DNA of 64,000 nt from an uncultured Nitrospiraceae bacterium (GCA_964493915.1 CAZBQH010000425.1:121-64120); one strand, 5' to 3'. Counted from the stretch's first letter, positions 3,072-29,469 are shown. Numbers and translations: made by a program. The notes: generated by a model from the letters alone, not told the origin.

Positions 3072-6041
3072 CTACTTCCCACTCTTTCTGCCGCGCTTCT
3101 TGGTCGCGCGTGCTTTTCTTGGCAACCGGAAGATTTCGAGTTCTGCCTTGGCGAGGAGTTCAGGCCAAAGGTGAACGGCTTCACGATCGTATTTTCGCAC
3201 AGATTCGGGTAGGTTTTCCCAACTCACGATGTAGGGCGAAATCCTGTTCTTAACGCTTTTCTCCCTCCCATAGGTCCAGCCGGAAGCGATGCGTTCCAGT
3301 ACCCAGCGGCCGTGCTCCATCTCAGCCATGCGCTCAATCTCCTTTTTGGTGAACGCGGGATTGTTAGGTGGCAGGCCCGCCGGGCGGATCGCGAAGTTGT
3401 TTGCGCGCAAGATATCCTCGAGGTATTCGATCTGATTACGGTTGAATTCTCGCAGGTCTTCGCGAAGCTTTGCCCACGGCTGCATAACCGGATCGGGATG
3501 GCTGTAGCGCTGCTGATCAAGGAAGTCCTCATGTATTTGCCTGGCTGCAGTCATGACGATTTTCGGCGATAGTGTCGTGGAATCGCCAACGCCAAAATGT
3601 AGGAACGCGCGAACGGTCATGGGGTCTTTGGGCAGGACAAACAGATTGGGTGTCCTATCGGGCGGCCAATCCTGAATAAGCCGCTCGGCTTCGCGGCCGC
3701 TGTTCTTAAGCAAGCCCACCCGCGCGCCCAAGGCCAGTGCAAATCTGTATTCCAGGCCCGCGATGAGTCCGCCGTTGATTCCCAGCAACCGGACATCGGC
3801 GGGTGTGACGCCTGTGGCCAGAAGGTCCAGCCACACCTGAACCGCCTCAGTGGGGCTGAAGAACCGTTTGCTGTCTGTTTTGCGCAGTTCTTTGTATCGG
3901 TCGTCTCGCGTGGCGGTGTTATCTGTTGGCAATTGGGGCGGAAGATAACCGATCGCGTGGATACGGCCTTTGGACTTCTGCGCTATCTCGCCGACCAACC
4001 CGCTGACCCCTTGCTCCGTGCCTCCGGAAATCACCACACCCTCGAAATCGGCGAAGGCCGCATGCAGCAACTCCCGATACGTCTCCATGTTTAATTCGAT
4101 GCACGGGTCGCAACCGCCGGCGACGATGACAAAAGGCCCGTTATGCTGGATAGGTTTCGCAGCTGGGAATGTGACATTTTCCGGCATGGGGATTTCCAGG
4201 AATCGAGAGCGCAAGGCCGCCGCGAGGAATCGCAAGGCGCATTCCAAATCCTGCCGATGGGGTTCATATCCTGCCAACAGGGACGCATCGCAGAGCGCAC
4301 TCACAAGTGCATCCGGCGAACGCGTCTCGCGCACAGCTTGGGCAAAGGTAGCGAGGCTCTCCCATTCCTTGTCGGCGCCAAGCAGTTGCAAGAATCCCGC
4401 GATTCGATACCGCGCGCGGGGCAGGTCGGCCTGGGCTGCAGCCAGTTCGCCGCACCGCCGAATGGCCGTCTGAATCGCAGGCCGCGCAATCGAGACGAAT
4501 TCAGGATCCCTTGCGGTCAGTGCCTTTTGACGAATCACACCGCTGAGCGCCGCCGGATTGCCGGGCTCAGCTTCGAAAGCCTTGAGATAGTGCTTGAGGG
4601 CGCCAAGGTTGCGCCTCTGCTCCGCCAGGGAATCGGCCAGCAGCAGCCTCGGCTCCGCAATGCGCGGAGATATTTGTGCTGCCTCTTCCATTTTCTGCCA
4701 TGCTGCTTTCCGTTTGGCGTCGTTTCTGGCCAGCTTATACATAGCATAACCGCCCAATGCCATAATCATTGGTTTTTTTGATGTATCTATGTTCTTATCT
4801 TTGGCCACTTGGACGACTTCCTGCCAGTCCTCGATCTCCGCTGCCAAGCGGGCGTGGCGCAGCGCCAGATCAAGATCCTTCGGGACGTGCCTGCGGATTA
4901 CGCGCGTCAATTCGATGCACTTGCGCGCGCTGTCGCTGTCCGCGCAGCGCGGCTGATGCGCCTCGTAGAAGGAGATCCCCTCGACCAAACGCTGGAACTC
5001 TTCGTCCGCTGCCTCGAGCAACGCTGCCACGCGGTTGGCCTCACGCTTCCAGTAGTCCGAAATCTCGCATGCCCCTTTGTAGAGCCGGTCGTGGCCGATG
5101 TCCGACCAGGCGTGCTGGGCGATAGTGCGCACTTGAATTTCTGCCTTGAGCCCCATCAATCCGGGCGGGATCTTCACTCCCGCCGGCTTGTTCTTAATGA
5201 TCTGCACGATGTAATGCACCGAGCGATAACCGAACTTGTCGGGACCTAGGCGCGAAAGCATATCCAGGCTGTTAGCTTCGTCAATGTGGAATATCTCGCG
5301 GATAATGCGCTCGACAGCCTCGACTTCGGACGGTAAATGAACGACCACGCGAAGGCCGGCGAGATCGGTCTGTTGATGGACGGGGTCGGTATATTTGTTT
5401 TTCTTGACGGTTTTATCCGCGAAGCTAACCAGCCCCTTGGCTCGGCCCCCGATGGTCGCCAGGGGGAATTGCGGTTTGATGGCCGTTTCGAGAACGCCGA
5501 TCAGAAAGTCCTTCAGCTGTTTGTGCTTCGGCAATGCCCTTACGAAGTCCTTAAGAAATCCGTCGAGTTTCTCGGGTGTTACCAAGGCCTCAGGAGGGCG
5601 CGGCGGTGCCGGTGGCTGTTGCGACTCGATGAATTGTTTGAAGTGGCGGCCCACGCCGCGGAACTGCGGCGAGAAATCAATGTCCTCGAGATCGCTGGGC
5701 GCTACCCACTGAAATTCGTCGTGCTCTTCGCTCAACCGGACCTTGCCCGGCTCCGCCTGCGCCAACATCACCAGGTAGACCACCTGCCGGTCGGGGAGAT
5801 CGGACATGGCGGTCTCAAACGGGCGGATCAGCCGGATGGTCAGGCCGGTTTCTTCGCGTACTTCGCGAGCAAGCGCCACATCGAAACTCTCGTCCGGATC
5901 AATCTTGCCGCCCGGCATTTCCCATTTTCCGGCGTTGTCCTTCGAAGCTGCCGAACGCCGCAGCAGCAGACACCGCCCCTCTGTGTCGAGCAATAGCGCC
6001 TTCAGAGACAACGATTGGGGTTTCGGAGTGATTGTGGACAT
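3072..6041 (-). CDS. A 989-aa multidomain protein made of four parts: an N-terminal Nudix hydrolase, a RelA/SpoT-family nucleotidyltransferase (synthetase-type), an alpha-helical TPR-like repeat region, and a SLOG/LOG-like Rossmannoid domain followed by a C-terminal RyR (Ry) domain.
   Basis: The Nudix box reads GGKIDPDESFDVALAREVREETGL. The RSH synthetase motifs are DLAGLRVVV, GYRSVHYIV and EIQVRTIAQHAWSDIGHDRLYK. The SLOG/LOG-like motifs are VIVAGGCDPC and VVISGGTEQGVSGLVGE. The RyR-like stretch reads EIERMAEMEHGRWVLERIASGWTYG...PYIVSWENLPESVRKYDREAV. Confidence 0.7.
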   Translation of the reverse strand: MSTITPKPQSLSLKALLLDTEGRCLLLRRSAASKDNAGKWEMPGGKIDPDESFDVALAREVREETGLTIRLIRPFETAMSDLPDRQVVYLVMLAQAEPGKVRLSEEHDEFQWVAPSDLEDIDFSPQFRGVGRHFKQFIESQQPPAPPRPPEALVTPEKLDGFLKDFVRALPKHKQLKDFLIGVLETAIKPQFPLATIGGRAKGLVSFADKTVKKNKYTDPVHQQTDLAGLRVVVHLPSEVEAVERIIREIFHIDEANSLDMLSRLGPDKFGYRSVHYIVQIIKNKPAGVKIPPGLMGLKAEIQVRTIAQHAWSDIGHDRLYKGACEISDYWKREANRVAALLEAADEEFQRLVEGISFYEAHQPRCADSDSARKCIELTRVIRRHVPKDLDLALRHARLAAEIEDWQEVVQVAKDKNIDTSKKPMIMALGGYAMYKLARNDAKRKAAWQKMEEAAQISPRIAEPRLLLADSLAEQRRNLGALKHYLKAFEAEPGNPAALSGVIRQKALTARDPEFVSIARPAIQTAIRRCGELAAAQADLPRARYRIAGFLQLLGADKEWESLATFAQAVRETRSPDALVSALCDASLLAGYEPHRQDLECALRFLAAALRSRFLEIPMPENVTFPAAKPIQHNGPFVIVAGGCDPCIELNMETYRELLHAAFADFEGVVISGGTEQGVSGLVGEIAQKSKGRIHAIGYLPPQLPTDNTATRDDRYKELRKTDSKRFFSPTEAVQVWLDLLATGVTPADVRLLGINGGLIAGLEYRFALALGARVGLLKNSGREAERLIQDWPPDRTPNLFVLPKDPMTVRAFLHFGVGDSTTLSPKIVMTAARQIHEDFLDQQRYSHPDPVMQPWAKLREDLREFNRNQIEYLEDILRANNFAIRPAGLPPNNPAFTKKEIERMAEMEHGRWVLERIASGWTYGREKSVKNRISPYIVSWENLPESVRKYDREAVHLWPELLAKAELEIFRLPRKARATKKRGRKSGK

Positions 6042-6553
6042 CAGACTTGCTCCCTAGGTTCCACACCTTACCGGACCGGCGGAAGCGGCAAGGGGTCCTC
6101 CCCCCAAGCTCCGCCTTTGAAAGCTTCCGAAAAAACTGTTCAGGGCCGTGCCGCTTGCGGTTTGCCATTCCGAGGCTCCTTTGTCTGCCGTCGCCGGGTT
6201 GGGACTCTCACAATCCACGGACCAGCTTACAGGGATCAGGGCAGAAGAAGTACCCTAATGCTCCGAATAGTAGCACAGAAGCGTACCCAAATACTGAATT
6301 TCCGAAATCGCTGGATAGCATCCATTCGTGGCGCGCAACGAAAGCCAAGGCGCGCCGTTCCGCGCAAGAGGCTTGCATCCAGTGGGTGAGTGCGCGCCTT
6401 GGCGGAACACGCCTGTCAGCAAGGACTTCGAGCGCGTCACAACCCGCCTACCCGGCGGTCGAGGAATTTGTAGAGACGGTCGGCATGTCCGTATACTCGA
6501 TACTGGCAAGATAAGATTTGCGAAAGGATGCGAGTCTTGAAGAGGTGGAAACC

Positions 6554-8221
6554 ATGGTAAGGCGGCTTGTGAAGAAATGGATGGCACATACTCTTGCGGC
6601 AGTTTGGGCGTTGTTGCTGTTTTCGGCGTGTCCACTCTCGCAGCAGGCAGGGACGGAGTTTGTGACGACAACCGCCGATTGGCTTCCCCAAGATTACGTG
6701 GATAGCCGCGGAATCGTCTCTGTTGCCAATGCGAATGGACGCTTGGTGCTTGAGGCCGACATGAAGGGCCAGGATCCGGAACGCTCGAGCGGGGAGATAT
6801 TGTTGGATCTGCGGTATTATCCGGGCCTTGAAAGCCAGGTTCCGCTGGACCTCAGTGACGAGGCAGTCACGGTGCAGCTTTGGGTTCCCGCCACATTTGC
6901 CGGTCCCACAAACGCACCAAACGGCATACAAGTTTTTGTGAAGGACGCGCAATGGGGCACGTGTTATTCAAAGTGGGTCAATGTAACGCGCGGCGGGAAT
7001 TACCGGATCAGTATGCGTCCTGGCGAGGGGGACGAGAATATCGTTACACCGGGCTTCGGTCCCACCCGAGTGCGGACGCTTGGCGTCAAGTTCGGCATGA
7101 ACGCGCGGAACAGGGATCTATTTTGTGGCACCATTATTGTCACCAGCATCACGATAACGCCTCCGGTGACGTTTTCCCCGCCGCCGGACCTCCCCGCACA
7201 GCCCCCGGCGCCCCTCTCCGCGACCGAACGGTTTGAACTCAGAGAAGATGGATTTTACCGTGAAGGACAACGGCGGTTTCTGGTGGGCGCCAATTGGCAG
7301 CCGATCGCCTATGGCCAGAACTTTGGCGCTACCGCGTGGTTCCCCTTGGGTAACGGCATATCCCGGCGGACAGGGTTTGTCCGCACGAATCTGGATTACG
7401 CCGCGCGGGCCGGCGTCCACGTTGTCCGCGTGGGACTCCTGGACGATGGCCGGGCAGCCCTGGATGCCGACGCGCGCGTGGTTGGGTGTTCCGAGTTGTT
7501 CCGCCAAGATGTGCAAGCGCTGCTGGACATGGCCAGGGACTTGGGATGCCGCATCGAATTCGTCCTGATGGATTACCAGATTGCCGGACAACCGGAGGTG
7601 GTGGATGGCGTTCTTCTACGCGGAAGAAGCCAACTGCTCCACGACGCTGAAACCAGAGCAGCCTTTATCGCCGAGTTTCTGGAACCGTTCCTGGATGATT
7701 TCGGGACCCATCCCGGCCTGTTCGGAATTGACCTCATCAACGAGCCGGAATGGCTGGTGAGCCACACGGATGGGGGCGCTTGGGAAGATGCAGACGACCC
7801 CTCGACCAAACCATCTTCTCCCATACCCGGCGCCGATCTGGCCGCCTTCATCGCCGCCAGCGCTGACACAATCCACGCGCGCGCTCCCCATCTGTTTGTG
7901 ACGGTTGGCGTATCCGCCCCGTTCATCGGCCTGGTCGAGGATGCCGGGCTCGACTATCTCGCCGTCCACCATTACCCCTGGATGGGTGATTTCCCGGACG
8001 CGTTGCCGCCGCTCTCATCGGGCATACCGTGGATGCTCGAGGAATACCCCACCCGATCAACACCCCTGACAGTGACCGAATACCTCGATGGCGCTGTGTC
8101 TGCGGGCGCCGTCGGCGCGATGCTCTGGAACCTGACCCCTGAACTCGATGAATATGCCTTTACCCATGCTGAGAGAAATCCCTTGGTGGAGACCTTGCGG
8201 TACTGGGTCGAAAACCTATAG
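6554..8221 (+). CDS. Secreted lipoprotein-type glycoside hydrolase of clan GH-A (GH5-like). It has an N-terminal beta-sandwich or CBM-like domain.
   Basis: The signal and lipobox read AVWALLLFSAC. The NEP acid/base motif reads DLINEPEW. The nucleophile-like motif reads TVTEYLDG. The RBS GAGGTGG lies before the ATG at 6554. Confidence 0.65.
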   Translation: MVRRLVKKWMAHTLAAVWALLLFSACPLSQQAGTEFVTTTADWLPQDYVDSRGIVSVANANGRLVLEADMKGQDPERSSGEILLDLRYYPGLESQVPLDLSDEAVTVQLWVPATFAGPTNAPNGIQVFVKDAQWGTCYSKWVNVTRGGNYRISMRPGEGDENIVTPGFGPTRVRTLGVKFGMNARNRDLFCGTIIVTSITITPPVTFSPPPDLPAQPPAPLSATERFELREDGFYREGQRRFLVGANWQPIAYGQNFGATAWFPLGNGISRRTGFVRTNLDYAARAGVHVVRVGLLDDGRAALDADARVVGCSELFRQDVQALLDMARDLGCRIEFVLMDYQIAGQPEVVDGVLLRGRSQLLHDAETRAAFIAEFLEPFLDDFGTHPGLFGIDLINEPEWLVSHTDGGAWEDADDPSTKPSSPIPGADLAAFIAASADTIHARAPHLFVTVGVSAPFIGLVEDAGLDYLAVHHYPWMGDFPDALPPLSSGIPWMLEEYPTRSTPLTVTEYLDGAVSAGAVGAMLWNLTPELDEYAFTHAERNPLVETLRYWVENL

Positions 8222-8950
8222 GCCTCGATATTCGGCGCTATAGGCAGAGTCTTCGTCGGGTGGCCGTATTCCAACCGCAATGATGACCACCTCTATCTCC
8301 GAACGCTCCTCATCCTCCACGATGGTACCGATGATGATTCGAGTGTTACGCTCGACGCTTGATGTGACCTGGGCATGGACTTCCGATACTTCGCGCATCA
8401 GCAGGTCGCTCCCACCACGCACACTGATGATGACGCAGAAGGCGCGGGAGATGTCCGTGTGATCGAGGAGCGGGCAGGTCAGGGCGTTTTTGGCGGCGCG
8501 GGTTGCTCGTTCTGCGCCACCAGATACCCCTATACCCATCACGGCGCGGCCGCGTCCCCTCAACATGTTGCAGACATCAGGAATATCCAGGCCTATCAGA
8601 CCGCGGTTGGAAAACGCGTCGGCAACAGCGCGAATGCCTGTGTGAAGCACTTCATCACTCATGTGAAACGCTTCCCCCAGACTCACCCGGCTATCCGTCA
8701 GTTCAGCCACCCGGCCGTCGGGAATCGCAATCAACACATCGGCATGTTCGCCGAGCGCATGCAGGCCGTCAAGTGCTTGGTCCATGCGTGGTTTTCCCTC
8801 AAAGTGGAACGGCAGGGTCGCAAAGGCCATCACGAGCGCGCCAGCAGCAGCAGCTTCTTCGGCGATGACCGGCGAAGCCCCGCTGCCCGTGCCGCCACCC
8901 AGTCCCAGCGCCAGGAACACGATGTCCGCGCCCTGAGTCATGTCACGCAA
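8216..8950 (-). pseudogene. ftsZ: FtsZ-like protein lacking the N-terminal 90 to 100 residues. It begins just before the tubulin signature GGGTGSG. It has a TTG start and sits 17 nt downstream of the NACHT gene stop.
   Basis: The FtsZ core motifs are present: [20 protein letters not shown], a T7-like GLIGLDIPDV, and MGIGVSGG...RA..AA. The reading frame is closed by a stop at 9017-9019, so there is no room for the missing N-terminus. Confidence 0.55.
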
Positions 8951-8966: not shown

Positions 8967-11216
8967 TCACACTGTCGACTGACAGCCTGCGGGCTGGCCC
9001 ATGGAACGCTCTTCCCTCAGCCACACCCAGTAGCCGAGGAGTTCGTTCCAGTCGCGCTTTTGCATCAGCAGGAAGCGGTAAATATCCAGTAGGCAGGCGC
9101 GGAGACGGTCGCGGGATTCGGCCTGCCGCAGCAGCCAGGGGAGTTCGTCGGCTTGCCGCGCATCCACGGACCGCGCGGCAAATTCGTCGGCCAGCCGCAG
9201 GCGCAAGGCCCGGGCCGTGCCGGCATCGGGCACGTACCGCCGTTCGACCGCCACGTGCAGGTACTCGTGCGCGAAAGCCAGTACGCCGTCGCGGTCAACC
9301 AGGCCATCCTCCAGCGCGCAGCGCACTGGCGACCAGAGGGCAGCGGGCAGACGTTCCTGTCCGGCGGGTTTCAGCGCCTCCAGCAACTCCGGTTCGGTCA
9401 GGCCGCGGCGGGCGGCCCAGAGCAGCGACAAGGCCTCGCGCACCAGCCCGGGCCAGTCGCGCTCGTAGTCGCGCTCGAAGCGGGTCAGGATCTTGCCTAG
9501 CAAGGCGGGGATGTCGGCGGCCTGGAGATAGTCTGCGATTTGCCGGTCGAGCAATTCGTGGTCGCCCGTGGCGCGCAAGTCGTCGAGCAGGGTCTTGATG
9601 TACAGCGGATTGGAGGCCGCCGCCGCGCCCGCGATCTTCCGCGCGCGGGACTCGGAAAGGCCCTGCGCGAAGTGGGCGAGGTAGCGTGCGATCAGCCGGA
9701 CGCGTTCCTCCGTTGTGAGCGGCTCGACGGTGAGCGCGGGCCAGTCGCGTGGTTGTAGGGCGTCTAATGTGTCGCCGGGCAGGGCGGAGACGACCAGACG
9801 CAGTTCACCGGGCAGGCGATACGGCAGCCAGGCCAGCAGACGACCGCGTTCCCGGTCTTCGAGCTGGTTGAGGGCGTCGAGAACAAGGACCGCCCGGACC
9901 CCTTTCTGCCTGGCCCGTCCGGCGAGGCGGCTGAGGTAGTCGGGAAAGACCTTCACGATTTCCTCCGCCGCGGCGGGAATCTTCTTCTCTTCCTCCTCGA
10001 GCCCGCTCGCGCCGGCGGGATCGTCCGCGCCGCACCAGCGAACAATGGCCACCATCAGCCGGCGCATCAGGGCCAGATGCCCGGCGCTCATCGCGGAACT
10101 GCCGATGTAATGCTGAAACACGAAGTCGTTGGGGTTTACCTGACGCCGGCGCGCCACCCAGTTGGCCAGGAGCGCGGATTTGCCGCCCCCCGACGCGCCC
10201 AGAATGGTCAGACCGCAGCCATCGGCACCGTCGCGGGCAAAGGCGTCCAGCCGGTTGAAGTAGGCGTCGCGCCCGATGTAGAAGGCGGTGCGGCGGCTCT
10301 TCGCGTAGGCTTCGTGGTCGCGGTCTTCGCGAGACCAGTCGTCGGGCGTTTGGTCGGGCGGGAACTCGGCGTCAATGGCGCCCGTGAGATCGGCGAGAAC
10401 GAGGACGGCGAGGGCGTGGGGATGAGCATAGTTCTCGTGCAGGGGGATGCCCTTAACGTCGCAAACCGCCCTCACCTTCTGTTTGAGCGCTTCCTGGCGG
10501 GCGGCACAGGCGGCATCCTCCGCCAGGTAGTCGCCGCCTTGGGACGCGGCGTAGTGCGGGTCGCGAAAATAGAAGAAGGCCCGCCCGGCCATTTCGGGGT
10601 CGTTGAGCACGCCATGATAGATTTCCAGTTCGGTGACGCTGTGTTTGGCGACCTCGCGCTTCAGCCAGTCTTCTTCATCCAGGAGCGCCGGCGTAAAGGC
10701 CTCCGGGCCGGGCGTCCAGCCATAGCGTTCGCCCAGCAGCCCGATGAAGTAGGGACGGCAGCGCTTGATCTCCGCCAGACAGTGGCGCAGCGTTTCCTTC
10801 CGCTGCGACTGTTCTTCGGTGACACCCCAGCGCAGGTCCACCTCGACAAACTCCACCGCCCGCCCACGGCAGACCTTCCGCAGGGCCGGCCAGACGTGGG
10901 CCATGAGTTCGTTGCGATCTTCGATCATGTCGCGAAACGTCGAAGAGACGAAGACGCGGACAACGCGGTCTTTGGCGGAGGACTTGGGGTCCGGATTGGA
11001 AACGCGATCGGCGTCCGGGGGCGCGCTACTCGTGTTCGCCGGGGTCACCTTTTCTTGCCACAGACTCGCGGAGTCGGCATTCCCCGCTGTGCCGGGCGGT
11101 GTGTCGCCTGGCGGACATTGGGCTGAAGCGCTGGCCGGGGCCGGTGCTTCCGAATCATGCTCGGGTTGGTTCTTGTCCGATTTGCCGCTGCCAAACAGTC
11201 GTTTCCACAGGCTCAT
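8967..11216 (-). CDS. STAND (NACHT-type) P-loop NTPase with an N-terminal DUF4062-like domain.
   Basis: The N-terminal motifs are VFVSSTFRDM...DLRWG...FIGLLGERYGW. The Walker A reads ILGASGGGKSALLANW. The long alpha-helical C-terminal region is typical of STAND proteins. Confidence 0.7.
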   Translation of the reverse strand: MSLWKRLFGSGKSDKNQPEHDSEAPAPASASAQCPPGDTPPGTAGNADSASLWQEKVTPANTSSAPPDADRVSNPDPKSSAKDRVVRVFVSSTFRDMIEDRNELMAHVWPALRKVCRGRAVEFVEVDLRWGVTEEQSQRKETLRHCLAEIKRCRPYFIGLLGERYGWTPGPEAFTPALLDEEDWLKREVAKHSVTELEIYHGVLNDPEMAGRAFFYFRDPHYAASQGGDYLAEDAACAARQEALKQKVRAVCDVKGIPLHENYAHPHALAVLVLADLTGAIDAEFPPDQTPDDWSREDRDHEAYAKSRRTAFYIGRDAYFNRLDAFARDGADGCGLTILGASGGGKSALLANWVARRRQVNPNDFVFQHYIGSSAMSAGHLALMRRLMVAIVRWCGADDPAGASGLEEEEKKIPAAAEEIVKVFPDYLSRLAGRARQKGVRAVLVLDALNQLEDRERGRLLAWLPYRLPGELRLVVSALPGDTLDALQPRDWPALTVEPLTTEERVRLIARYLAHFAQGLSESRARKIAGAAAASNPLYIKTLLDDLRATGDHELLDRQIADYLQAADIPALLGKILTRFERDYERDWPGLVREALSLLWAARRGLTEPELLEALKPAGQERLPAALWSPVRCALEDGLVDRDGVLAFAHEYLHVAVERRYVPDAGTARALRLRLADEFAARSVDARQADELPWLLRQAESRDRLRACLLDIYRFLLMQKRDWNELLGYWVWLREERSMGQPAGCQSTV

Positions 11217-11266: not shown

Positions 11267-11512
11267 CTACAAACGTGATCCCATGACGCCCAGGATGCCC
11301 ACGAAAAAGGGGCGGCACACGTCGATCTGTTCGAGGCAGAGGTCGAGAACGCGGTCGTTCTCGGCCTCCTCGGGCGTAATGCCCCAGCGCAGGTCGATAT
11401 CAAACAGGTGGATGCGGTAGGGCAGCAGCCGTTCGCGCAGCCGCGGAAAGACCCGCTTCACCAGGATATCCCGCTCCGCGTCCATGTCGCGGAACGTCGA
11501 GGAGATAAACAC
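11267..11512 (-). pseudogene. A 5' fragment (about 75 codons) of a third DUF4062-NTPase paralog. It is truncated right after ...CRPFFVGILG.
   Basis: The motifs SSTFRDM...DLRWG...GILG are present. The fragment lies inside the 380-bp repeat at 11287-11666, and the frame terminates after 5 unrelated codons. Confidence 0.65.
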
Positions 11513-11666
11513 CCGTACATCACGCCATCGATGCGATATGGGTCTACTCCATCCCGTGTGTGTTGCTTGCCCTCAGCCCCGTTGCCGCTTGGAAATCAAC
11601 TGCATAGTAGCAGAAGTCGAAGCCAATGGTGAACGAAGAAGTGCAGCGAGGCAACCAGGCATGCGT
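11287..11666. repeat. A 380-bp repeat unit containing the upstream region plus the first 75 codons of a DUF4062 gene. Copy A of two.
   Basis: It aligns to 30740-31119 at about 88% identity, with identical end points. Confidence 0.7.
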
Positions 11667-11727: not shown

Positions 11728-12840
11728 TCACGCGGCGCTGTCCAGAAGCGCGTTCATGCACGCCATGGATTCGTCCTCAACCAGTCGAATGGCCCGTATT
11801 GCCTTCTTGTTTCGTGCCACTGTCCCCGCGATCATGTGGAGGCGCCCCACGTTTGCGATAACAGGTTTCCACAGGGGGATGTCCGCTTTCTGTCCGGCTT
11901 GCCACCGTACGGGCGTCATCAGGAAGGTGTTTACATGATGCGACAAACGCTTGTACATCTCGAGGCCGGTCTTTGCCAGACTGCTCATGGCCGCGGCGTC
12001 CATGCCGTCGAGCATGGACAGCAACCGGCTGATGCCCGGGTTGGGATAGATCTCCTTGAAGAACCGGGCCATGTCGTCGGTCAGAAAACGCCGGAGTGTA
12101 CTCAGGTCGCAGCCGAGGGTAAGGTAGACCAGCTCGATGACGTGGCGCAACGAGGGGATGCCGAAGCCTTTGGATACAAGAAAGGCAAACCGCTGGTCGC
12201 TGTGCCATGCGCCTTGGAAAACACACCTTCCCAAGGCGTAGAGAAGCGCATCCACTTCCGCGTTGCCCTCCTCGCAGCGCTTGGCGAGAAGGTTCCGTGC
12301 GTCGTCGCGGAACAGCGAGAGCCTGAGGAAATACCGTTCGCGTCCGTACGTCATGAGGCGGGCAAAGCGTTCATCCAGGAGGGGGTATTCAGGACTGCGG
12401 TATAAATCCTCGGCAATGAGGCTGTACAGATCGTACCAGTCTTGACTGACGCGGGAGACGTAATAGGCGGGCATGCCGAATTCGAGCCGGCGAACGCTGA
12501 AGCTGACATCCCCCTGGCCGATCGTGCGCAGGCTGCTTCTGAGTTTGTCGGGCTGTGCGAGTGAGACCGTCGCCTCTCCATAGAACCCTTGGATACGTAC
12601 TTCCTTGGAAAGCACCTGGTTCGTTGCGTTCAACAGATCCTTCGTGCCGCCCTCCGTAAACAGCGTGTGCCGCAAGGCATCGTACTCGCGCAGGAGGCAG
12701 AAAAGGGACTGCAGGCCTTCGGGATCATACGCCGCCCTGCGGTGCCAAACCCCTGCAGCGTAGTATTTGGAAGGAAACCACGATGCGCCATGCTCGCCGG
12801 TGTCCACCCGGGTTCGTGCACTATGGGCGGCCTTGTCCAT
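11728..12840 (-). CDS. Hypothetical 370-aa protein. It is the last gene of the ClpB-like/MoxR/vWA operon.
   Basis: A long ORF on the same strand lies 20 nt after the vWA gene. I recognised no motifs in it. Confidence 0.5.
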   Translation of the reverse strand: MDKAAHSARTRVDTGEHGASWFPSKYYAAGVWHRRAAYDPEGLQSLFCLLREYDALRHTLFTEGGTKDLLNATNQVLSKEVRIQGFYGEATVSLAQPDKLRSSLRTIGQGDVSFSVRRLEFGMPAYYVSRVSQDWYDLYSLIAEDLYRSPEYPLLDERFARLMTYGRERYFLRLSLFRDDARNLLAKRCEEGNAEVDALLYALGRCVFQGAWHSDQRFAFLVSKGFGIPSLRHVIELVYLTLGCDLSTLRRFLTDDMARFFKEIYPNPGISRLLSMLDGMDAAAMSSLAKTGLEMYKRLSHHVNTFLMTPVRWQAGQKADIPLWKPVIANVGRLHMIAGTVARNKKAIRAIRLVEDESMACMNALLDSAA

Positions 12841-12860
12841 AAAGCCTCCTTTTCTTGTTT

Positions 12861-15026: not shown

Positions 15027-16099
15027 ACCAAGTCTCCACCCGCAGCGACGGAGTTGGCCGTCTCACGCCGAAATCCGAACACCTCGCAGAAAAGGGCTTG
15101 CGCCGCCTCACGGTCCTCCAGGTTCGCCGACCCGAGAAGTGTCAGGTTTGCGACATCCGGCAGCGGGTAATGCGGGTCGCGGGCGGCCTCCCGGATGAAC
15201 GCGCAATACCCATAGATTGTCGGCGGAGCTAGGCTCAACAGGTTCCCCTGCGCACGTTGCGTGCGCAGCATCCCTCCAAGCTCCACGATATTGAGTACCA
15301 GGCCCTCATCGGTCGCGGGGAGATACTTGGTCTTCATCAGATAACGCAGAATCTCGACTTCTTGTTCTGGGGAGGGGAAGTCAAACGCGATGCTGACCGT
15401 CCAGCGGCGTTTCAGTGCGTCGTCTTGGGTGACGAGGATATGCGTGGACGTTGCATCGGTATGGTAGTTGGAATCGGCGAACCAAGCGACCCCGGCCCCG
15501 CTCACCATGGCGTTGTCAGATATCCGGGTGAATCCCTGCGTCATGAGGTTGAGCAGGCCGCCCTGGATGGCGGCCGTGGACACGCGGCCAATCTCGCGGA
15601 GCCAGATGACGGGATAAACATCATCCAGCACCTTCTTCGACTCCAGGATGGCATTGACGATACAGCTTGGCTCGTCATACGTCTGCCCGTCCCGGATGGC
15701 GCGGCGGTAGTACATCTCCGAGATCGTGTCAAAGACAACCATTTCGACGGGAAACACGCGCAGCGGCTTGTACTTGATGCCCCTCAGCGCGCACAACGCT
15801 TTCCAATTCTCCGGGACATAGGCAAGCGCCTCGAAGAAGCCCGTCTTCGCAGTGCCGGTGTGCCCGTGAATGTGAATCATTTCCGCGTCGGCTATTGCCC
15901 CGGCTATGGATTCCGGGATCCGCTTCGGCAGAACGATGGGCGGGCGGCCCCTGTCTGGCACAAGCGCCACCAGTTCCGAAGGGCCGGCCTTGGCCAGTTG
16001 TTTAGTGTCACGGATATCGTAGATGCTGGGGGCCGTGGAAGCCCGGTTCGCGTCCTGCGCCGCATACGCTTCCGTCTTTGACCGCCGTGCAAATCGCAT
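15023..16099 (-). CDS. MoxR-type AAA+ ATPase of the AAA_5 or CbbQ/NorQ-like type.
   Basis: The Walker A reads IHIHGHTGTAKTGFFEALA. It is about 360 aa, and it is translationally coupled to the downstream vWA gene. Confidence 0.6.
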   Translation of the reverse strand: MRFARRSKTEAYAAQDANRASTAPSIYDIRDTKQLAKAGPSELVALVPDRGRPPIVLPKRIPESIAGAIADAEMIHIHGHTGTAKTGFFEALAYVPENWKALCALRGIKYKPLRVFPVEMVVFDTISEMYYRRAIRDGQTYDEPSCIVNAILESKKVLDDVYPVIWLREIGRVSTAAIQGGLLNLMTQGFTRISDNAMVSGAGVAWFADSNYHTDATSTHILVTQDDALKRRWTVSIAFDFPSPEQEVEILRYLMKTKYLPATDEGLVLNIVELGGMLRTQRAQGNLLSLAPPTIYGYCAFIREAARDPHYPLPDVANLTLLGSANLEDREAAQALFCEVFGFRRETANSVAAGGDLV

Positions 16100-16144
16100 G
16101 GGATTCTCCCTTCTATTCCGCCCGGGTGACGGACGGTGTTGCCA

Positions 16145-18376: not shown

Positions 18377-18413
18377 GACAATCTGCTCCCTTCATGTGGC
18401 CGTCCATGGATAA

Positions 18414-18429
18414 GGCAAGAATCGGGCCA
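18414..18429 (-). promoter_or_regulatory. Putative sigma54 (-24/-12) promoter TGGCCC-GATTC-TTGCC, 38 nt upstream of the ClpB-like gene ATG.
   Basis: GG and GC are spaced exactly as in the TGGCAC-N5-TTGCW consensus. An EBP-like gene is divergently encoded. Confidence 0.4.
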
Positions 18430-18455
18430 GTCTGCGGACACGCAGTAATGCGCTG

Positions 18456-21803: not shown

Positions 21804-21837
21804 GCAGCACGCTCCCTCCGAAATTTGCATACGTAAT

Positions 21838-24432
21838 TCATTTGTGGTCTTCTACGAGATGACGATCGAGCCACAGATTATTGACGTCAGGGCTTTCCAA
21901 CAGACCACAGAGATTCAACACAAAACGCCTGGCGTGAGCATCATCGCCCTCAGCACGAATCACAAGCTTCGTGCCTTGACCCGCAGCAAGGACGAGCACA
22001 GCCATCATGTCGGTGGCATCGGTTGCGTCAGATGCAGCAACGTCAGGTCTCCGGAGGGTCACAGCGTGCCCGAACCTTATGGTTTCACGCCCCACGACAT
22101 TCGCGAGAATGGCATCGAGTCCTGTCTCGACACCGACGGTTACGGTCGCAGTGGTTTCGCCGTTGCCTTGCTTTAGAGGGCATGAGAGTCCTGCGGTCAC
22201 CCATGTCAATCGTCTTTGCGCACCATGTGCTACGCGTTGGTCTCTATCTTCGACAAAGCATTTCAGCAAAGACGGATCGTGAATGGCACCTATCGCGATT
22301 GAGCGCAGATGCAAACAATCTTCATCCCCGATCAACCCTATGAGCTTGGCATAGATCTCACGGCGTTGATCTTCGTCGAGCGTAGACGCTTCTGCCGTAG
22401 TAGTTAGTGACTTCAGACGATCCGCTGCCGCGACGCGTATATGAATAGGCGTGCCTGCGGATTCGATCAGTTCGAACAGATGGTTAATGTCATCGCTGTG
22501 CAGAACACCGTCCCTTTCTCTCAAACGGGAAAGGACCTCTTCTTCTTGCAGGCGAAGTTGCGCTGGAGGGATACGATGTCCTCCATCAATGTTGTCCACG
22601 GCGAAGAACGCCACGCCGCCGCCCAAACAACCAACGGCAAGAACGCCACCATTCTCGGATAACTTGCAGCAACTTGGCGTGTGTTCAAGAACGTGCGAGG
22701 CGAGCGGCAGTGCCGCTTGGCAATCCCAGAGCATCACGGCTTTGTCTATCCCTACAGACATTGCATATTGGCCATCAGCGGATATCGAACAATTAGTTAC
22801 GGGGCCAGTATGTCCAACAACTGTTCTAACCGAAGGAGCGACGCTGGCGAAATCGACAAATGCAATCTTGCCTTGCGAATCCCCAATAATGCCTTGATGC
22901 GCGTTCATGCTTAATGCACAAGGGAGCGACGTACAAATATTCAACTCTAGACCAAAATGCCCCGTATACGCGTTATCTACACACAGCCACCGCATACTGT
23001 CCATTTGTTGCTGCCAAACGATTTCGCCCCAATGATTCTCGGCCCGCAAATCGAAGAGCATAGCCACTCCTTTGTAGCAATCTACTGCCAGCAAAGCACT
23101 GTGCGCAGAAAAGGCCGCAATATCGATACCCCAGGGAAGAGAATGATCAACTATCTGATAAATTTCTTGTGCTTCCTGAAAATCATTGCGACCGAATTGC
23201 TCTAAATATGAGGATATATCGACAATCCAACAATCAAATTTACGCCCCCAATACTTCCCTAATACATAACCTGTATATTTCGAAGCACAGAGAGGTATTA
23301 ACCACGTCTGAAAGTCCTTTTCAAGAACTCGAGGATTTTCGGATATTGGATGCCATGCTATGTCTTTGGTTCTGCCAGTTGAAATATCGAGCATTTGAAC
23401 GAATTTCTTGCATTGCACAAGTGCTTGATTTTGTGATGGGAGGTATTCCAAAAATGGCCCAATTTCTGAGTACCTTCCTAAAGCCGATTTGTGTACCAAG
23501 CACGCTTCGTCCAGATTCCAGACAATGCATTCACTATTCAAATCTAAGGAAATGCATCTTCTTCCCTCGTAGTCCAAGTCAATAGATCTGACTCTAGTCG
23601 AATGACCTTCGATAGATGGCGCATTGCTTTTTACGAGCTTTGCTGCATCCCAGACTGCAATCTCTCCAGACTTGGATGCTGTAGCAAAGCGCGTTCCGGG
23701 GCCTAATTGGATTAAGGACGTTATTGATAAATCGTGGGGTCGCCATCCGCAGTAGAAGGGTTTCACTATTTCAATAGAGCGACCTCTTATATCAATCTCG
23801 ATGTGAAAATCGTTGCCGATGCTTAAAGCATCGATGCCTGATGTGCCCTTCTTGCCCTCAAAGTATATTTGTTTGTTGTTAAGTGTAACACAGAAGGTCT
23901 CGGGTAATAGCAAGATAGAGCCAAACCAAGTCAATTCTTTATCATCCCTAGTTTGCGTTTGCCTTATCGTCTCTTGTCTTGTGTCCGGAACGACAAAGTC
24001 ACAATGCAGAATCTTGCCAGACGTAAGTTTCCATAGTAAGGTCTTCTTCTCTGCTGTTACGGCCAAAAGAATGTCTTCTTCTGGAGCATATGCCAAAGCT
24101 ACGTCCTGGCCACTAGACTCAATGTGAAAGACCCAATCCGGTGTTTGGTTAGCTCCAGAGGAAAGGGGAACATGTATACAGCGCAACCAGGGTTTTCCCT
24201 GATCTGATTCCCATGCAGTGAGTAACTGGTGCAACTGATCGCTAGCATCTGCTCCATGACGCGACACCAAATCGGCATAAAGAATTCCAAAAAAACACCA
24301 TGGATATTCTATTATTCGGGGTGCAACCCGTCGAACTGCTCGGGTAATCTCCCTAATGGCTACGTAACTCGTATTAGCAGATGGCATCGCATCCAAGGCA
24401 TTATTTAAGTCCTGCAAGAGTGCTAAGATCAT
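21838..24432 (-). CDS. An 864-aa WD40 or beta-propeller protein with a shared N-terminal domain, HEAT-like helices and a C-terminal HPr-like domain in which the active-site His is replaced by Asp.
   Basis: WD-like repeats are present. The C-terminal stretch TVGVETGLDAILANVV...VAASDATDATDMMAVLVLAAGQGTKLVIRAEGDDAHA...LCGLLE aligns to HPr (GLHTRPAAQFV...[29 protein letters not shown]). The start overlaps the NACHT gene stop (ATGA). GC is lower than in neighbouring genes. Confidence 0.55.
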   Translation of the reverse strand: MILALLQDLNNALDAMPSANTSYVAIREITRAVRRVAPRIIEYPWCFFGILYADLVSRHGADASDQLHQLLTAWESDQGKPWLRCIHVPLSSGANQTPDWVFHIESSGQDVALAYAPEEDILLAVTAEKKTLLWKLTSGKILHCDFVVPDTRQETIRQTQTRDDKELTWFGSILLLPETFCVTLNNKQIYFEGKKGTSGIDALSIGNDFHIEIDIRGRSIEIVKPFYCGWRPHDLSITSLIQLGPGTRFATASKSGEIAVWDAAKLVKSNAPSIEGHSTRVRSIDLDYEGRRCISLDLNSECIVWNLDEACLVHKSALGRYSEIGPFLEYLPSQNQALVQCKKFVQMLDISTGRTKDIAWHPISENPRVLEKDFQTWLIPLCASKYTGYVLGKYWGRKFDCWIVDISSYLEQFGRNDFQEAQEIYQIVDHSLPWGIDIAAFSAHSALLAVDCYKGVAMLFDLRAENHWGEIVWQQQMDSMRWLCVDNAYTGHFGLELNICTSLPCALSMNAHQGIIGDSQGKIAFVDFASVAPSVRTVVGHTGPVTNCSISADGQYAMSVGIDKAVMLWDCQAALPLASHVLEHTPSCCKLSENGGVLAVGCLGGGVAFFAVDNIDGGHRIPPAQLRLQEEEVLSRLRERDGVLHSDDINHLFELIESAGTPIHIRVAAADRLKSLTTTAEASTLDEDQRREIYAKLIGLIGDEDCLHLRSIAIGAIHDPSLLKCFVEDRDQRVAHGAQRRLTWVTAGLSCPLKQGNGETTATVTVGVETGLDAILANVVGRETIRFGHAVTLRRPDVAASDATDATDMMAVLVLAAGQGTKLVIRAEGDDAHARRFVLNLCGLLESPDVNNLWLDRHLVEDHK

Positions 24433-27035
24433 TGCCTGTTTACCTCATGTACGGAAAACAATCCGGAGAAGTTGCCCTCCGAGGAGTTCGGGTCAGCCTC
24501 GGCTTTGGCTTCGAGAAACTGCCAGTCGGTGAGGAGATCAGCGACAACGTCCCAGTACTTGGACTTCGGGTCGAAATTGCCGCCCAGCTTGGCGGCTTCC
24601 AGGCGATGGTACGGCAGCTCGACGACTTTGCGAATGTTGGCTGGGCGTGGTGTCTGGGGCAAGCGTTTGGCGCGGGCGCGCTGGGCTTCGAGGGATTCAG
24701 CCCAGTAGTCGAGCGTGTGAAAGTAATCGCCAAGGCGGTCGTGGGCCGCAAGTTTGGCCGCTTTCTCTCTTAGATAGCGTGTTGTGACGGCTTTCCCGAC
24801 CTGGCGGTGATAGAAGTTCATGACGACGGTGCCGTCCGCGCGCCGCTCCGTCATGTAGGGTTTCATGTCGGCGTAGAGCCGCGACCAGACGACGATAGGC
24901 AGCCGGTCGATTTCTTGTGGTGATTCGGGGTTGCGTGCGAAGTAGTCGTTCATGACGGCCTTCTCGCGAGAGAGAACATCCAAGATCTCATCCTCAGTGA
25001 GTCCGTTCTTGGCGGCGGCGACATTGCTGAGGGCTCGTTCGACAAGCAGCCTTCCGTGCTGCCGGGGTAGTTCAAGCCGCTGCAGCATGTCGGCAAGTAT
25101 GCCTTCGATTCCTTTATGCAAACCCGATACTCCATCGGCAGTGCAAGGCAGTCCGTCCCATGATCGCCAGAGGCGGGCTTCCTCGAACGCGATCTTGAGA
25201 TAAAGTGGGCGGCCATCCTCGTTGAACTTGGTTAGTACATCATTCTCTTGAGCCTTTTGTAAGGTCCTGTTGACTTCGTCAAGCCAGCTCTTAAGCAATT
25301 CTTTGCCGTCCTCAGGGGCGAGACACCCGATTCTTGCAAGCGACTTTGGCCAGATTTGCCGAGCGATGCTGAAAGGATCATTCACTGCGGTCTTCGACAC
25401 CTCAGTCTTTGGTTGCTCTTTTCCAAGCATCGAAAGGATCGGCTTGACACCCGACCAGATTTTCTGATCGATTCTGAAAGGGCCATTTACGGCGGTTTTC
25501 GACTCCTCTGTCTTTAATTGCTCCTCTTCAAGCACCGAGAGGATCAGCTTGACACCCGATGCAAGCTGCCGCGGCAGCCAGTCGAGCATTTGGGCGTTGT
25601 CGGTGGGACTAAGTTGGTCAAGGGCATCGAGAAAGACCACTGTGGGGCCCGGTTTTGCGCCTTCCTCACCCTGCACAGGGCCTGAAAGGCGTTCGCGAAA
25701 GGCTTCGATCAGTTCATTCATGTCTATGGGAGGAGAATCAATACCCAACTGTCGGCACAGGCTTCGCAGGAGGTTGCCCAGATCAGCCGATTGCGGAGTC
25801 GCCCCAATAAAGCGCGCAACCGCCTGATCTGGGGCAGTGAGCGTCAGCCATGCCCGGGCCATCAGTGCTGTCTTGCCCGTGCCGGAAACGCCGTGGATGA
25901 CGAGGGGGAGTTGGTCGGCCCCATTGGCGAGGTACTTCTTGATTCTGTTGAGTTGCTTGCGCCTGCCGATAAAGTGCCGGCTTCGCTCAGTAGCGAACTC
26001 GCGATGCGCATCAACCTCTCGCTCCAGTTCGGGATGTTGCTGAAAAGCCCGCAATTCCATGTCAATGATGTCCTGCAAATCCCTCAAAACCTCGTCGCAA
26101 AGTTGCGACAGATCCGGCTCATTGTGGAGATCCATCGCCCGTGAGCGTGACCGGTCCCGCGTCTCAACCCGATTCCAGTCCGCGGCATATTTGAAAATGT
26201 GTTCAGGCGGCAACCTTAAGCCTATCTGCTCTTTCAATGCCTGCAAATCGTCCTTATCCTTCCCCGTATCGATGAAGGTGCTGGCCGGCCCGTTTTCTGG
26301 TGCGCCCGTAATCTCCCGGAAATAGGCAAAGACGTGTTTCTCCGCCTCGCTCGCCTGGAATGCGCCATGTTCGATTTCCTGATGCGTGGCCGACTGCTCA
26401 TAGTCTGTGCGGCGCGGATCATCCATGGACCAGCCCAGGGCATTGATAGCATCGCGCAAGAAGCCACCCATTGCCGACTCAATGTCCTGCCAATCTTGTG
26501 CTTCGGCTTCTTTCATGCGCTGCATGTCTTCGGCGGACACGTTTTCGGGGAAAAAGATGGTGCGCGGCTGCAGGACGTACTCCTCGGGCACCGCATTCCG
26601 GTCTTTGCGGTACCAGCCTATCCGCTGTTCGATGATGTTTTCGCACCACGCCACTGGTGTATCTTCTCCTGCCAACAGCGCCCGCCCAGCCTCCGGCACA
26701 ATATCGAGAAGCGACTCGAACTCGTTCGCCGGAATCCGTGCCGGCAGCGGCCGCCATCCATAGCGTTCGCCCAGTAGAATGATGAAGTTCGGACGCGGCG
26801 ACATTTCCTGGCATCGCGCCAGTTCCTGGAAACAGATATTCATTGTCTGCTGGTCCAGAGCCGCCTCGGTGCTCACGCCCCAGCGCAGGTCAATTGCCTG
26901 AAAGCGAGCCCCATGCTCCTGGCAGTACTTCCGCAGCGCTGGAAACACATGTTGCTGAAGCGCGTTCCGCTCGGCTTTCAAGTCGCTGAACGTCGAGCTC
27001 ACAAACACCCTGAAAATCAGGTCTCGCCTTGCCAT
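24429..27035 (-). CDS. An 868-aa STAND (NACHT-type) NTPase with an N-terminal DUF4062-like domain. It is upstream of, and coupled to, the WD40 genes.
   Basis: The N-terminal motifs are VFVSSTFSDLKAERNAL...IDLRWGV...IILLGERYGW. The Walker A reads LVIHGVSGTGKTALMARAW. A winged-helix-like tail is present. Confidence 0.7.
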   Translation of the reverse strand: MARRDLIFRVFVSSTFSDLKAERNALQQHVFPALRKYCQEHGARFQAIDLRWGVSTEAALDQQTMNICFQELARCQEMSPRPNFIILLGERYGWRPLPARIPANEFESLLDIVPEAGRALLAGEDTPVAWCENIIEQRIGWYRKDRNAVPEEYVLQPRTIFFPENVSAEDMQRMKEAEAQDWQDIESAMGGFLRDAINALGWSMDDPRRTDYEQSATHQEIEHGAFQASEAEKHVFAYFREITGAPENGPASTFIDTGKDKDDLQALKEQIGLRLPPEHIFKYAADWNRVETRDRSRSRAMDLHNEPDLSQLCDEVLRDLQDIIDMELRAFQQHPELEREVDAHREFATERSRHFIGRRKQLNRIKKYLANGADQLPLVIHGVSGTGKTALMARAWLTLTAPDQAVARFIGATPQSADLGNLLRSLCRQLGIDSPPIDMNELIEAFRERLSGPVQGEEGAKPGPTVVFLDALDQLSPTDNAQMLDWLPRQLASGVKLILSVLEEEQLKTEESKTAVNGPFRIDQKIWSGVKPILSMLGKEQPKTEVSKTAVNDPFSIARQIWPKSLARIGCLAPEDGKELLKSWLDEVNRTLQKAQENDVLTKFNEDGRPLYLKIAFEEARLWRSWDGLPCTADGVSGLHKGIEGILADMLQRLELPRQHGRLLVERALSNVAAAKNGLTEDEILDVLSREKAVMNDYFARNPESPQEIDRLPIVVWSRLYADMKPYMTERRADGTVVMNFYHRQVGKAVTTRYLREKAAKLAAHDRLGDYFHTLDYWAESLEAQRARAKRLPQTPRPANIRKVVELPYHRLEAAKLGGNFDPKSKYWDVVADLLTDWQFLEAKAEADPNSSEGNFSGLFSVHEVNRQ
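25351..25559. repeat. A tandem duplication (2 x about 104 bp) inside the NACHT CDS. It encodes a 35-aa repeat (LSVLEEEQLKTEESKTAVNGPFRIDQKIW and LSMLGKEQPKTEVSKTAVNDPFSIARQIW).
   Basis: Adjacent copies of about 80% identity are visible in the DNA and in the protein. Confidence 0.6.
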
Positions 27036-29467: not shown

Positions 29468-29469
29468 GG

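Follow-up and report, generated by a model that had tools for sequence, protein, structure and literature searches.

A Nudix-RSH-SLOG-RyR fusion protein as a candidate effector of a nucleotide-signalling conflict system

A 64,000-nucleotide stretch of DNA from an uncultured Nitrospiraceae bacterium (GCA_964493915.1, CAZBQH010000425.1:121-64120; hereafter the window) carries a gene for a protein of 989 amino acids (aa) that joins, from the N- to the C-terminus, a Nudix hydrolase domain, a synthetase-only RelA/SpoT-family (RSH) domain, a TPR-like helical array, a SLOG domain of the TRPM/LSDAT type and a domain resembling Repeat12 (R12) of the ryanodine receptor (RyR). We propose that this protein could be the effector arm of a nucleotide-signalling conflict system that follows the logic of Thoeris, with an RSH pyrophosphokinase replacing the effector domain of ThsA, a reading on which our confidence is evenly balanced. 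The protein is a member only of its constituent domain families and is far larger than any described small alarmone synthetase; from this analysis we class it, provisionally, as a nucleotide-gated immune effector in which effector and sensor are newly combined.

The initial annotation, made from the sequence alone, had proposed a 989-aa protein at 3072-6041. The translation and the list of open reading frames (ORFs) confirm an ATG-to-stop ORF across this interval, to which we add the strand (minus), and the existence of full-length homologues at 30-86% identity shows it to be a gene under selection, not an ORF arising by chance. The motifs that had been pointed out are all found in the translation: the Nudix box, GYRSVHYIV (as FGYRSVHYIV) and AEIQVRTIAQHAWSDIGHDRLYK in the RSH domain, and GGCDPC (as VAGGCDPC) and SGGTEQG in the SLOG region. 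Profile searches and structure prediction, which had been suggested as a check, support every domain, including the marginal SLOG. All four Pfam matches exceed their gathering scores (NUDIX, residues 15-123, E=1.4e-21; RelA_SpoT, PF04607, residues 199-323, E=5e-16, 59.4 bits, cut-off 27; LSDAT_prok, 'SLOG in TRPM, prokaryote', residues 636-793, 27.4 bits, cut-off 25.4; RyR, residues 900-957, E=4e-12) and the structure searches agree with them, bearing out the Nudix, RelA/SpoT, SLOG and RyR assignments. NCBIfam returned sub-threshold matches only, of the MutT/NudG and YjbM types and a weak one to PEP_TPR, and PADLOC matched the protein to two defence-candidate models, PDC-S07 in the Nudix part and PDC-S33 in the RSH part. 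The AlphaFold2 (AF2) model of the full-length protein, built on a 35-sequence alignment, has a predicted local distance difference test score (pLDDT) of 85.4 and a predicted template modelling score (pTM) of 0.71, and shows in order a Nudix fold, a short disordered linker (residues 143-151), the RSH α/β core, helices, a Rossmannoid domain and a helical C-terminal domain. The annotated TPR stands in part: residues 369-613 are all-helical, with ~12 consecutive helices at a pLDDT of mostly 85-95 (DSSP string of the AF2 model), and TPR Pfam families are annotated in homologues, whereas the protein itself has only the weak NCBIfam match. The canonical RyR repeat is preceded by a conserved helical half carrying W856 and N867.

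The catalytic sites of the proposed generator and degrader are intact. In the RSH domain the motifs RxKxxxSxxxK, DxxGxR, GYxSxH, EIQxRT and HxxxHxxxYK are complete, and in an alignment of 35 relatives (30-86% identity), the basis of all conservation counts here, R200, K202, K210, D226, G229, R231, Y272, H276, E301, Q303, R305, T306, H310, H317, Y321 and K322 are invariant (35/35) and S206 is kept in 34. The Nudix box is canonical (GX5EX7REUXEEXGU) and has its catalytic glutamates (GGKIDPDESFDVALAREVREETGL, residues 44-67; GKIDPDESFDVALAREVREETGL, residues 45-67); in the 18 aligned members that bear a Nudix domain, G45, E51, R59, E60, E63 and G66 are always present and E64 is present in 17, with one E64K.

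The nearest solved structures to the RSH domain in a PDB sequence search are the RelQ/RelP small alarmone synthetases (3l9d at 1.3e-12, then 2be3, 5dec and 6ewz), and Foldseek agrees, while CapRel (7ztb) and the other toxSAS structures gave no match at E<=10 in that search; by sequence, the domain is not detectably CapRel-like. RSH-only proteins of 325-340 aa on Bacillus, Cetobacterium and Ralstonia plasmids and in one Mycobacterium prophage have 31-40% identity to the RSH domain, and because these subfamily-unclassified proteins themselves match RelQ/RelP best, their likeness settles neither substrate nor subfamily. A placement of the domain in a described toxSAS subfamily (FaRel, FaRel2, PhRel, PhRel2 or CapRel) was attempted and dropped, as the PDB searches gave only RelQ/RelP, with CapRel appearing only at E ~0.2 and only for the prophage relative. 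The RSH product may be ppGpp, ppApp or pyrophosphorylated tRNA, the acceptor not being readable from the sequence. The Nudix domain matches 3grn in the PDB by sequence (E=2.8e-20), and Foldseek returned 3grn, NudG (2rrk), MutT2, BdRppH and Ap6A hydrolase, with target TM-scores of ~0.8-0.9 for most. Judged by sequence and model, it groups with these small MutT/NudG/MutT2/RppH/ApnA-type enzymes and not with ADPRases. A rule that takes a proline 16 residues after the Nudix box to mark an ADPRase was dropped as not discriminating, since the LPDRQ found here looks MutT-like and E. coli MutT has the same FPDR. Both MutT and NudG break (p)ppGpp down to pGp, in vivo as well as in vitro (PMC5845004).

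The C-terminal half of the protein is a predicted nucleotide sensor. A separate AF2 model of residues 615-989 reached a pLDDT of 90.6, and because its pTM (0.89) is better than that of the full-length model, it suggests that SLOG and RyR pack as one unit. Foldseek searches with this model returned the TRPM2 chanzyme with ADP-ribose (ADPR), TRPM2/4/5/8 and human RyR3 Repeat12 over ~200 columns; the structural matches of the module thus include TRPM2 MHR1/2 with ADPR, the ThsA SLOG with 3' cyclic ADPR (3'cADPR) and RyR R12 with adenine nucleotides. The SLOG domain combines its profile match with a Rossmannoid SLOG fold and Gly-rich loops, which places it in the LSDAT/TRPM clade, and the C-terminal domain likewise has both the PF02026 profile match and the R12 fold. 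The characterised relatives of both folds all bind ADPR-type or adenine nucleotides. Phage RyR-domain (PF02026) proteins named RyDEP bind 2'/3'cADPR with nanomolar affinity or cleave it to ADPR through an H75/D117 dyad, W78 stacking on the adenine and H100 contacting the phosphates, and the same residues bind adenine ligands in RyR3 R12 (PMC13232231). In our family H910 and W913 never vary and D952 is found in 33/35, at spacings (+3, +42) equal to those of RyDEP; these correspondences come from the spacing and from an alignment to Bt/human R12 rather than from a superposition on RyDEP. Two Nudix-bearing relatives, P0078 and P0082, have a shortened, degenerate SLOG in which SGGT has become TCGIDG or AFGTGG, and because they nevertheless keep the RyR residues, along with those of RSH, R12 alone can, it seems, serve as the sensor in some lineages.

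To place the gene in its genomic setting, ORFs were called and clustered in the best 80 of 560 loci of the family, with a longest-ORF heuristic. In the 77 loci compared for a Nudix gene, it forms one gene with RSH in 8, lies next to the RSH gene in 43 (in 41 of these on the same strand) and is a few kb away in 6, with none seen in 20, some of which are truncated contigs. The unfused Nudix is a gene of ~135-170 aa directly upstream or downstream, often overlapping the RSH gene or lying <100 bp away. Two Nudix subtypes occur, one upstream or fused and the other downstream, both keeping R/K-E-x2-E-E; one 1160-aa homologue, P0052, has two tandem Nudix domains ahead of its RSH domain. Most relatives encode the Nudix separately, next to the RSH gene, and the 989-aa protein is thus a Rosetta-stone fusion that records a conserved two-gene partnership.

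Further genes recur beside the pair. A Pfam scan of 120 immediate non-Nudix neighbours gave DUF4062 (10), TrkA_N (9) and TIR_2 (6) as the top families, and iterated profiles placed DUF4062 in 23 loci and TIR-like genes in 23 loci within 8 kb, together 39/78, although the iterated TIR profile may drift and hold false positives, which makes the Pfam-confirmed 6 TIR_2 and 10 DUF4062 immediate neighbours the safer lower bound. Translational coupling of TIR_2 and DUF4062 genes to the RSH gene is frequent, and in loci L008, L014 and L070 a DUF4062-NACHT/STAND gene either overlaps the stop codon of the RSH gene or lies directly against it. Four further loci, judged from precomputed Pfam annotation, show similar arrangements. 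The fused, 55% identical homologue of L086 has a TIR_2 gene (L086 6868-7953) 48 bp upstream; L087 has a DUF4062-NACHT gene 68 bp downstream, a second one upstream, and integrases; L088 has a divergent DUF4062-STAND gene, a TIR_2 gene downstream and a TrkA_N-RyR gene; and in L085 (Fundidesulfovibrio agrisoli) TIR_2, two unknown genes, an FtsH-like AAA+ protease and RSH are co-directional. DUF4062, which here mostly occurs on STAND/NACHT proteins, is reported to be a TIR-like NADase whose products in both human TEP1 and the 'Swarozyc' system are ADPR and nicotinamide (bioRxiv 10.64898/2026.05.01.722283), and the DUF4062 profile built here matches the PDB entries 'KpSwz TIR/DUF4062' and TEP1. The TrkA_N-RyR proteins, present in 19/78 loci (e.g. 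L021, L042, L078 and L010; L021:3129-4925), are ~600 aa long; besides TrkA_N/RCK domains and, at the C-terminus, a RyR domain, they have an N-terminal region with two hydrophobic segments and a pore-like LYLAVQLFTLESG. From these features they are probably RCK-regulated, ligand-gated channels with a C-terminal R12, prokaryotic RyR-domain channels that have apparently not been studied. Three Gemmatimonadota loci (L039:4212-5207, L043 and L049) have an ARPP-1 gene (PF20208) and a TetR gene upstream of the RSH operon; ARPP-1 is a domain tied to ADP-ribosylglycohydrolase systems and is one more ADPR-related neighbour.

The initial annotation had pictured a self-contained system, and here the loci depart from it: the Nudix is far more often a separate, adjacent gene than a fused domain, and TIR_2, DUF4062-STAND and TrkA_N-RyR neighbours recur. 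Because the RSH protein is recurrently joined to these genes, it looks like one arm of a multi-gene pathway. The family itself numbers 560 loci among 185,579 bacterial and archaeal species genomes (one genome per species), or ~0.3% of species. Nearly all carriers are metagenome-assembled genomes (MAGs), two of them with two copies; the bacterial ones include Planctomycetota, Verrucomicrobiota, Chloroflexota, Gemmatimonadota, Bacteroidales, Actinomycetes and Proteobacteria, the archaeal ones Bathyarchaeia, Methanomicrobia, Methanoregulaceae, Halobacteriota and Thermoplasmatota. Of the best 80 loci, eight come from archaeal MAGs; both the taxonomy and the presence in archaea hinge on MAG binning, and several of the archaeal contigs are 80-340 kb long. 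From the archaeal carriage we infer that a universal target is favoured over stringent-response regulation. Full-length relatives form >150 clusters, of ~990 aa with Nudix or ~830-870 aa without it, and residues 381-989 searched against 1.84 billion representatives matched at least 631 clusters (50% identity) at E<1e-30 and 2,678 at E<1e-10. The relatives carry generic annotations such as 'mutator protein MutT', 'ppGpp synthetase/RelA/SpoT-type nucleotidyltransferase' and 'RyR domain-containing protein'. In the plasmid and phage collections we found single-domain RSH or Nudix matches only and not the full architecture. The family is thus common in absolute numbers, not a rarity, yet patchy. 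A wide spread in core genomes under a housekeeping annotation had been named as evidence that would count against the proposal; what we find instead is patchy carriage among STAND, TIR and transposase genes. The architecture had also been thought undescribed, and indeed no description of it was found in the searchable literature, nor any paper combining RSH with SLOG or RyR; Atkinson et al. 2011 (RSH classification) and Kaur et al. 2020 do not mention it, while an earlier mention in the SLOG-fusion catalogue of Burroughs et al. 2015 (NAR) is possible.

In its anatomy the protein ties two enzymes of opposite chemistry, a pyrophosphokinase and a pyrophosphohydrolase, through the helical array to two folds that bind small molecules. 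Putting these observations together, we suggest the following course of events. Infection or another insult would activate a neighbouring TIR or DUF4062-STAND (NLR-like) protein, which would turn NAD+ into ADPR or a cyclic or modified ADPR. This ligand would bind the SLOG and/or R12 pocket of the RSH protein and, via the helical array and probably with oligomerisation, free the RSH domain from inhibition. The RSH domain would then transfer pyrophosphate from ATP to a purine nucleotide, giving (p)ppGpp or (p)ppApp, or else to the 3' end of tRNA, causing growth arrest, while the Nudix would hydrolyse the product, setting a threshold and permitting reset. Such a brake has a parallel in the small alarmone hydrolases that counteract toxSAS toxins. 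Less likely, the Nudix would hydrolyse the ADPR-type ligand as a timer, like the Nudix of the TRPM2 chanzyme; the product-directed brake is favoured because the Nudix is MutT/NudG-like. In about a quarter of the loci the channel-like protein, with two transmembrane segments (2TM), RCK and RyR, may act as a second RyR-bearing effector. What we observe is which domains are present, that their active sites are intact and that the genes are linked; the steps themselves we infer. The broader proposal, that these genes make up an unrecognised immune pathway widespread in uncultured bacteria and archaea, running from TIR/DUF4062 through an ADPR-type nucleotide to an RSH effector and in some loci an RyR-gated channel, is more tentative, and we think it possible but somewhat doubtful.

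Several known systems resemble the proposed one in part. In type I Thoeris, ThsA couples a SLOG sensor to a SIR2 effector with the TIR protein ThsB as partner; the likeness lies in a SLOG-gated effector, whereas here the effector is an RSH pyrophosphokinase instead of SIR2, the SLOG is of the TRPM/LSDAT type, and R12, a helical array and a partner Nudix come in addition. An adjacent TIR (ThsB-like) gene, as in Thoeris, is missing from the window; TIR_2 or DUF4062 genes are often adjacent in relatives. With the toxSAS systems (FaRel, FaRel2, PhRel and CapRel, with small-alarmone-hydrolase antitoxins) the protein shares a synthetase-only RSH with intact motifs, pairing with a hydrolase potentially able to destroy the product, and a setting of the mobile or defence type. 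It differs from them in its 989 aa with three extra modules, in a Nudix partner in place of an HD-domain small alarmone hydrolase or proteinaceous antitoxin, and in an RSH domain nearest RelQ/RelP by sequence, with CapRel (7ztb) not detected; its toxicity is putative. The TRPM2 chanzyme (SLOG/MHR1-2, channel and active NUDT9-H Nudix), the top structural match, has the same SLOG subtype and likewise holds SLOG in one chain with an output module and a catalytically intact Nudix, whereas the 989-aa protein is prokaryotic and soluble, has RSH as its output instead of an ion channel, and carries a MutT/NudG-like, not an NUDT9/ADPRase-like, Nudix. RyR Repeat12 and the phage RyDEP proteins share with it the PF02026 fold, and the residues that align with their H-x2-W...D ligand or catalytic residues are conserved in the family. 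Unlike RyDEP, a free phage sponge or glycosidase, the R12 here is a putative ligand-binding module at the C-terminus of a host multidomain enzyme, and the phosphate-binding His has become Ser/Thr in the family. RelQ and RelP, finally, are the best sequence and structure matches to residues 156-362 and share all synthetase motifs, but they are single-domain enzymes of ~210-230 aa in housekeeping stress signalling, ~24% identical in the structural alignment, and lack the large regulatory extensions and conflict-type context seen here.

A number of observations weigh against the Thoeris-like reading. PADLOC Thoeris models do not match the protein. A scan of the window ORFs found no TIR gene in the 64 kb and four DUF4062 ORFs, none adjacent to the RSH gene; the nearest DUF4062-STAND gene lies 2.9 kb off, with an FtsZ-like fragment and an opposite-strand 567-aa ORF between. 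Among the relatives, half of the 78 loci have no TIR or DUF4062 gene within 8 kb, and beyond the 6 + 10 Pfam-confirmed neighbours the TIR count rests partly on the drift-prone iterated profile. The co-location, given here as raw counts, could be plain defence-island clustering. As to the sensor and the enzymes, the phosphate-binding His of R12 (RyDEP H100) is replaced by Ser/Thr/Asn in 32/35 relatives, a MutT-like Nudix does not identify the ligand, and the sequence of the RSH domain does not disclose its acceptor.

We weighed three other explanations of the same data. The RSH domain might be the signal generator: the TPR-like array would sense the trigger, RSH would make a pyrophosphorylated messenger and RyR domains would read it, the protein's own R12 serving feedback or oligomerisation, the neighbouring 2TM-RCK-RyR channel killing the cell and the Nudix clearing the messenger against self-activation. 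This would account for the TrkA_N-RyR proteins in 19/78 loci and the further RyR-only proteins that cluster nearby, for the two hydrophobic segments and pore-like LYLAVQLFTLESG at the channel N-termini, and for the tight Nudix pairing, which suits messenger degradation; R12 domains also bind adenine nucleotides (PDB complexes with ATP, ADP and AMP-PCP). Yet three quarters of the loci, the window included, have no RyR channel gene, so that the RSH protein there would lack an effector, no RyR domain is known to bind 3'-pyrophosphorylated nucleotides, and the SLOG domain and the TIR/DUF4062 neighbours are left unexplained. We consider this explanation unlikely. A physiological, non-immune alarmone enzyme analogous to bifunctional Rel, in which an SAS-type synthetase makes (p)ppGpp, a Nudix replaces the HD hydrolase and SLOG/RyR tunes the balance by NAD/ADPR or adenylate status in large-genome environmental microbes, seems to us quite unlikely. 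The RSH domain is nearest to the housekeeping-type RelQ/RelP, (p)ppGpp is broken down by Nudix enzymes of the MutT type, the gene is a chromosomal one that the plasmid and phage collections lack, and PADLOC gives partial matches to two candidate models only; but the family occurs in ~0.3% of species, scattered and including archaeal MAGs, with two paralogues in some MAGs, its neighbours are STAND, TIR, DUF4062, transposase and integrase genes instead of metabolic ones, and fusion and fission of the Nudix with variable gene order typify conflict systems.

The explanation favoured by the initial annotation, a self-contained fused toxin-antitoxin or abortive-infection switch in which the Nudix is a cis antitoxin and the C-terminal domains sense the trigger with no partners, draws support from the window itself, where no co-directional partner abuts the solitary gene, which has 476 bp upstream of it, and all modules are in one chain; fused toxSAS-sensor proteins such as CapRel do exist. 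Against it, the fused form is in the minority (8 against 43 split), further conserved neighbours exist, no sequence similarity to CapRel was found (7ztb absent at E<=10), and SLOG and R12 are small-molecule-binding rather than protein-sensing folds, and we hold it to be very unlikely.

To describe the surroundings of the RSH gene, we list the features of the window in Table 1. A 'defence island', as initially annotated, is a reasonable description of its first part: between 3 and 32 kb lie four DUF4062 ORFs, WD40 proteins, two DDE transposases and AbiEii, and the right half of the window holds housekeeping genes. The DUF4062-AAA_16 STAND-TPR gene, the candidate partner, is 2.9 kb upstream of the RSH gene on the same strand. 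PADLOC on ten neighbours gave AbiEii, a weak Avs1b-like STAND match and PDC-M37B for an AAA_2 protein, and nothing more; a tblastn search of the window for a remnant of a TIR gene like that of L086 found none, and scanning for sigma-70 promoters and terminators near the RSH gene was uninformative.

Table 1. The RSH gene, its domains and the DUF4062 ORFs of the window (positions counted from the first letter of the window)
Feature	Position	Strand	Remarks
Whole gene, Nudix-RSH-TPR-like-SLOG-RyR	3072..6041	-	989 aa; stop codon 3072-3074; identical recorded protein P0001
Nudix hydrolase domain, residues 9-141	5619..6017	-	Small MutT/NudG/RppH-like type; Nudix box at nt 5841-5909
RSH synthetase (pyrophosphokinase) domain, residues 156-362	4956..5576	-	Without HD hydrolase domain
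All-helical TPR-like repeat array, residues 369-613	4203..4937	-	Joins enzyme half to sensor half
SLOG domain, TRPM/LSDAT type, residues 636-815	3597..4136	-	Predicted nucleotide-ligand sensor
RyR Repeat12-like domain, residues 826-972	3126..3566	-	Canonical repeat, residues 900-957
Basic C-terminal tail, residues 973-989, PRKARATKKRGRKSGK	3075..3125	-	Low confidence; pLDDT <50 for residues 977-989
DUF4062-AAA_16 STAND-TPR gene	8967..11216	-	749 aa; Pfam DUF4062 9e-13, AAA_16, TPR_NPHP3; candidate partner
DUF4062 fragment	11270-11572		DUF4062 profile scan of window ORFs
Second full DUF4062-NACHT STAND gene	24429..27035	-	Pfam
DUF4062 fragment	30708-31025		DUF4062 profile scan of window ORFs

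Divergent from the RSH gene, at 6518-8221 (+), is the 567-aa ORF, which has no Pfam or PADLOC match and is similar only to a 445-aa protein encoded beside the RSH gene of L040, with which it is 29% identical across 174 aa. The DUF4062-STAND gene has directly downstream of it, at 8216-8950 (-), a 244-aa FtsZ/tubulin-like ORF that lacks the first ~100 residues of the tubulin GTPase domain but retains the GGGTGSG loop along with FtsZ_C; this may be either a truncated paralogue or an accessory of the STAND protein that targets cell division. A conserved five-gene module occupies 11728-20213, where a minus-strand operon encodes proteins of 370, 721 and 358 aa, none with a significant Pfam match, and a 743-aa ClpB-like AAA_2 ATPase, and a sigma-54 activator gene (18594-20213, +) diverges from it. 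In L034 and L038 the module lies in the same order directly beside the Nudix and RSH operon, at 35-45% identity, and a different ClpB-like AAA+ gene is found within ~6 kb of the RSH gene in 11/78 loci. A sigma-54-like site, TGGCCCGATTCTTGC, is located at 18415-18429 (-), 39 bp upstream of the AAA_2 start. Sigma-54 control of the RSH gene itself was rejected: strict -24/-12 sites upstream of the RSH operon number 0 in 76 loci, against a background of 1/405, and none is present in the window at 6042-6517. Two WD40 genes (20460-24432), one with a C-terminal PTS-HPr domain, follow the DUF4062-NACHT gene on the minus strand (together 20460-27035), and 27368-32439 contains two DDE transposases, a DUF4062 fragment and the AbiEii toxin gene (31174-32439). 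The stretch 20460-32439 marks the island border before the genes for fumarase, RNase G and a PBP2-type penicillin-binding protein; an ADP-ribosylglycohydrolase gene is distant, at 55743-57464.

If the Thoeris-like reading is correct, NAD-derived immune signalling would be coupled directly to alarmone synthesis or tRNA pyrophosphorylation, linking two fields that have been studied apart, RSH/alarmone toxins and NAD-derived (TIR/Thoeris, DUF4062) immune signalling, and adding a new effector class to Thoeris-like systems. To our knowledge, experimental support for RyR and TRPM-type SLOG domains so far comes only from animal channels, ThsA and phage RyDEP; the bacterial domains would gain a cellular role, and the SLOG and Nudix pair of TRPM2 and the R12 of ryanodine receptors would be seen acting jointly as ADPR sensors in a prokaryotic, ancestor-like context. 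Because at least one cultured carrier exists, Fundidesulfovibrio agrisoli (WP_243311169.1), the hypothesis is directly testable, and the family extends to archaea, where RSH enzymes have been little studied.

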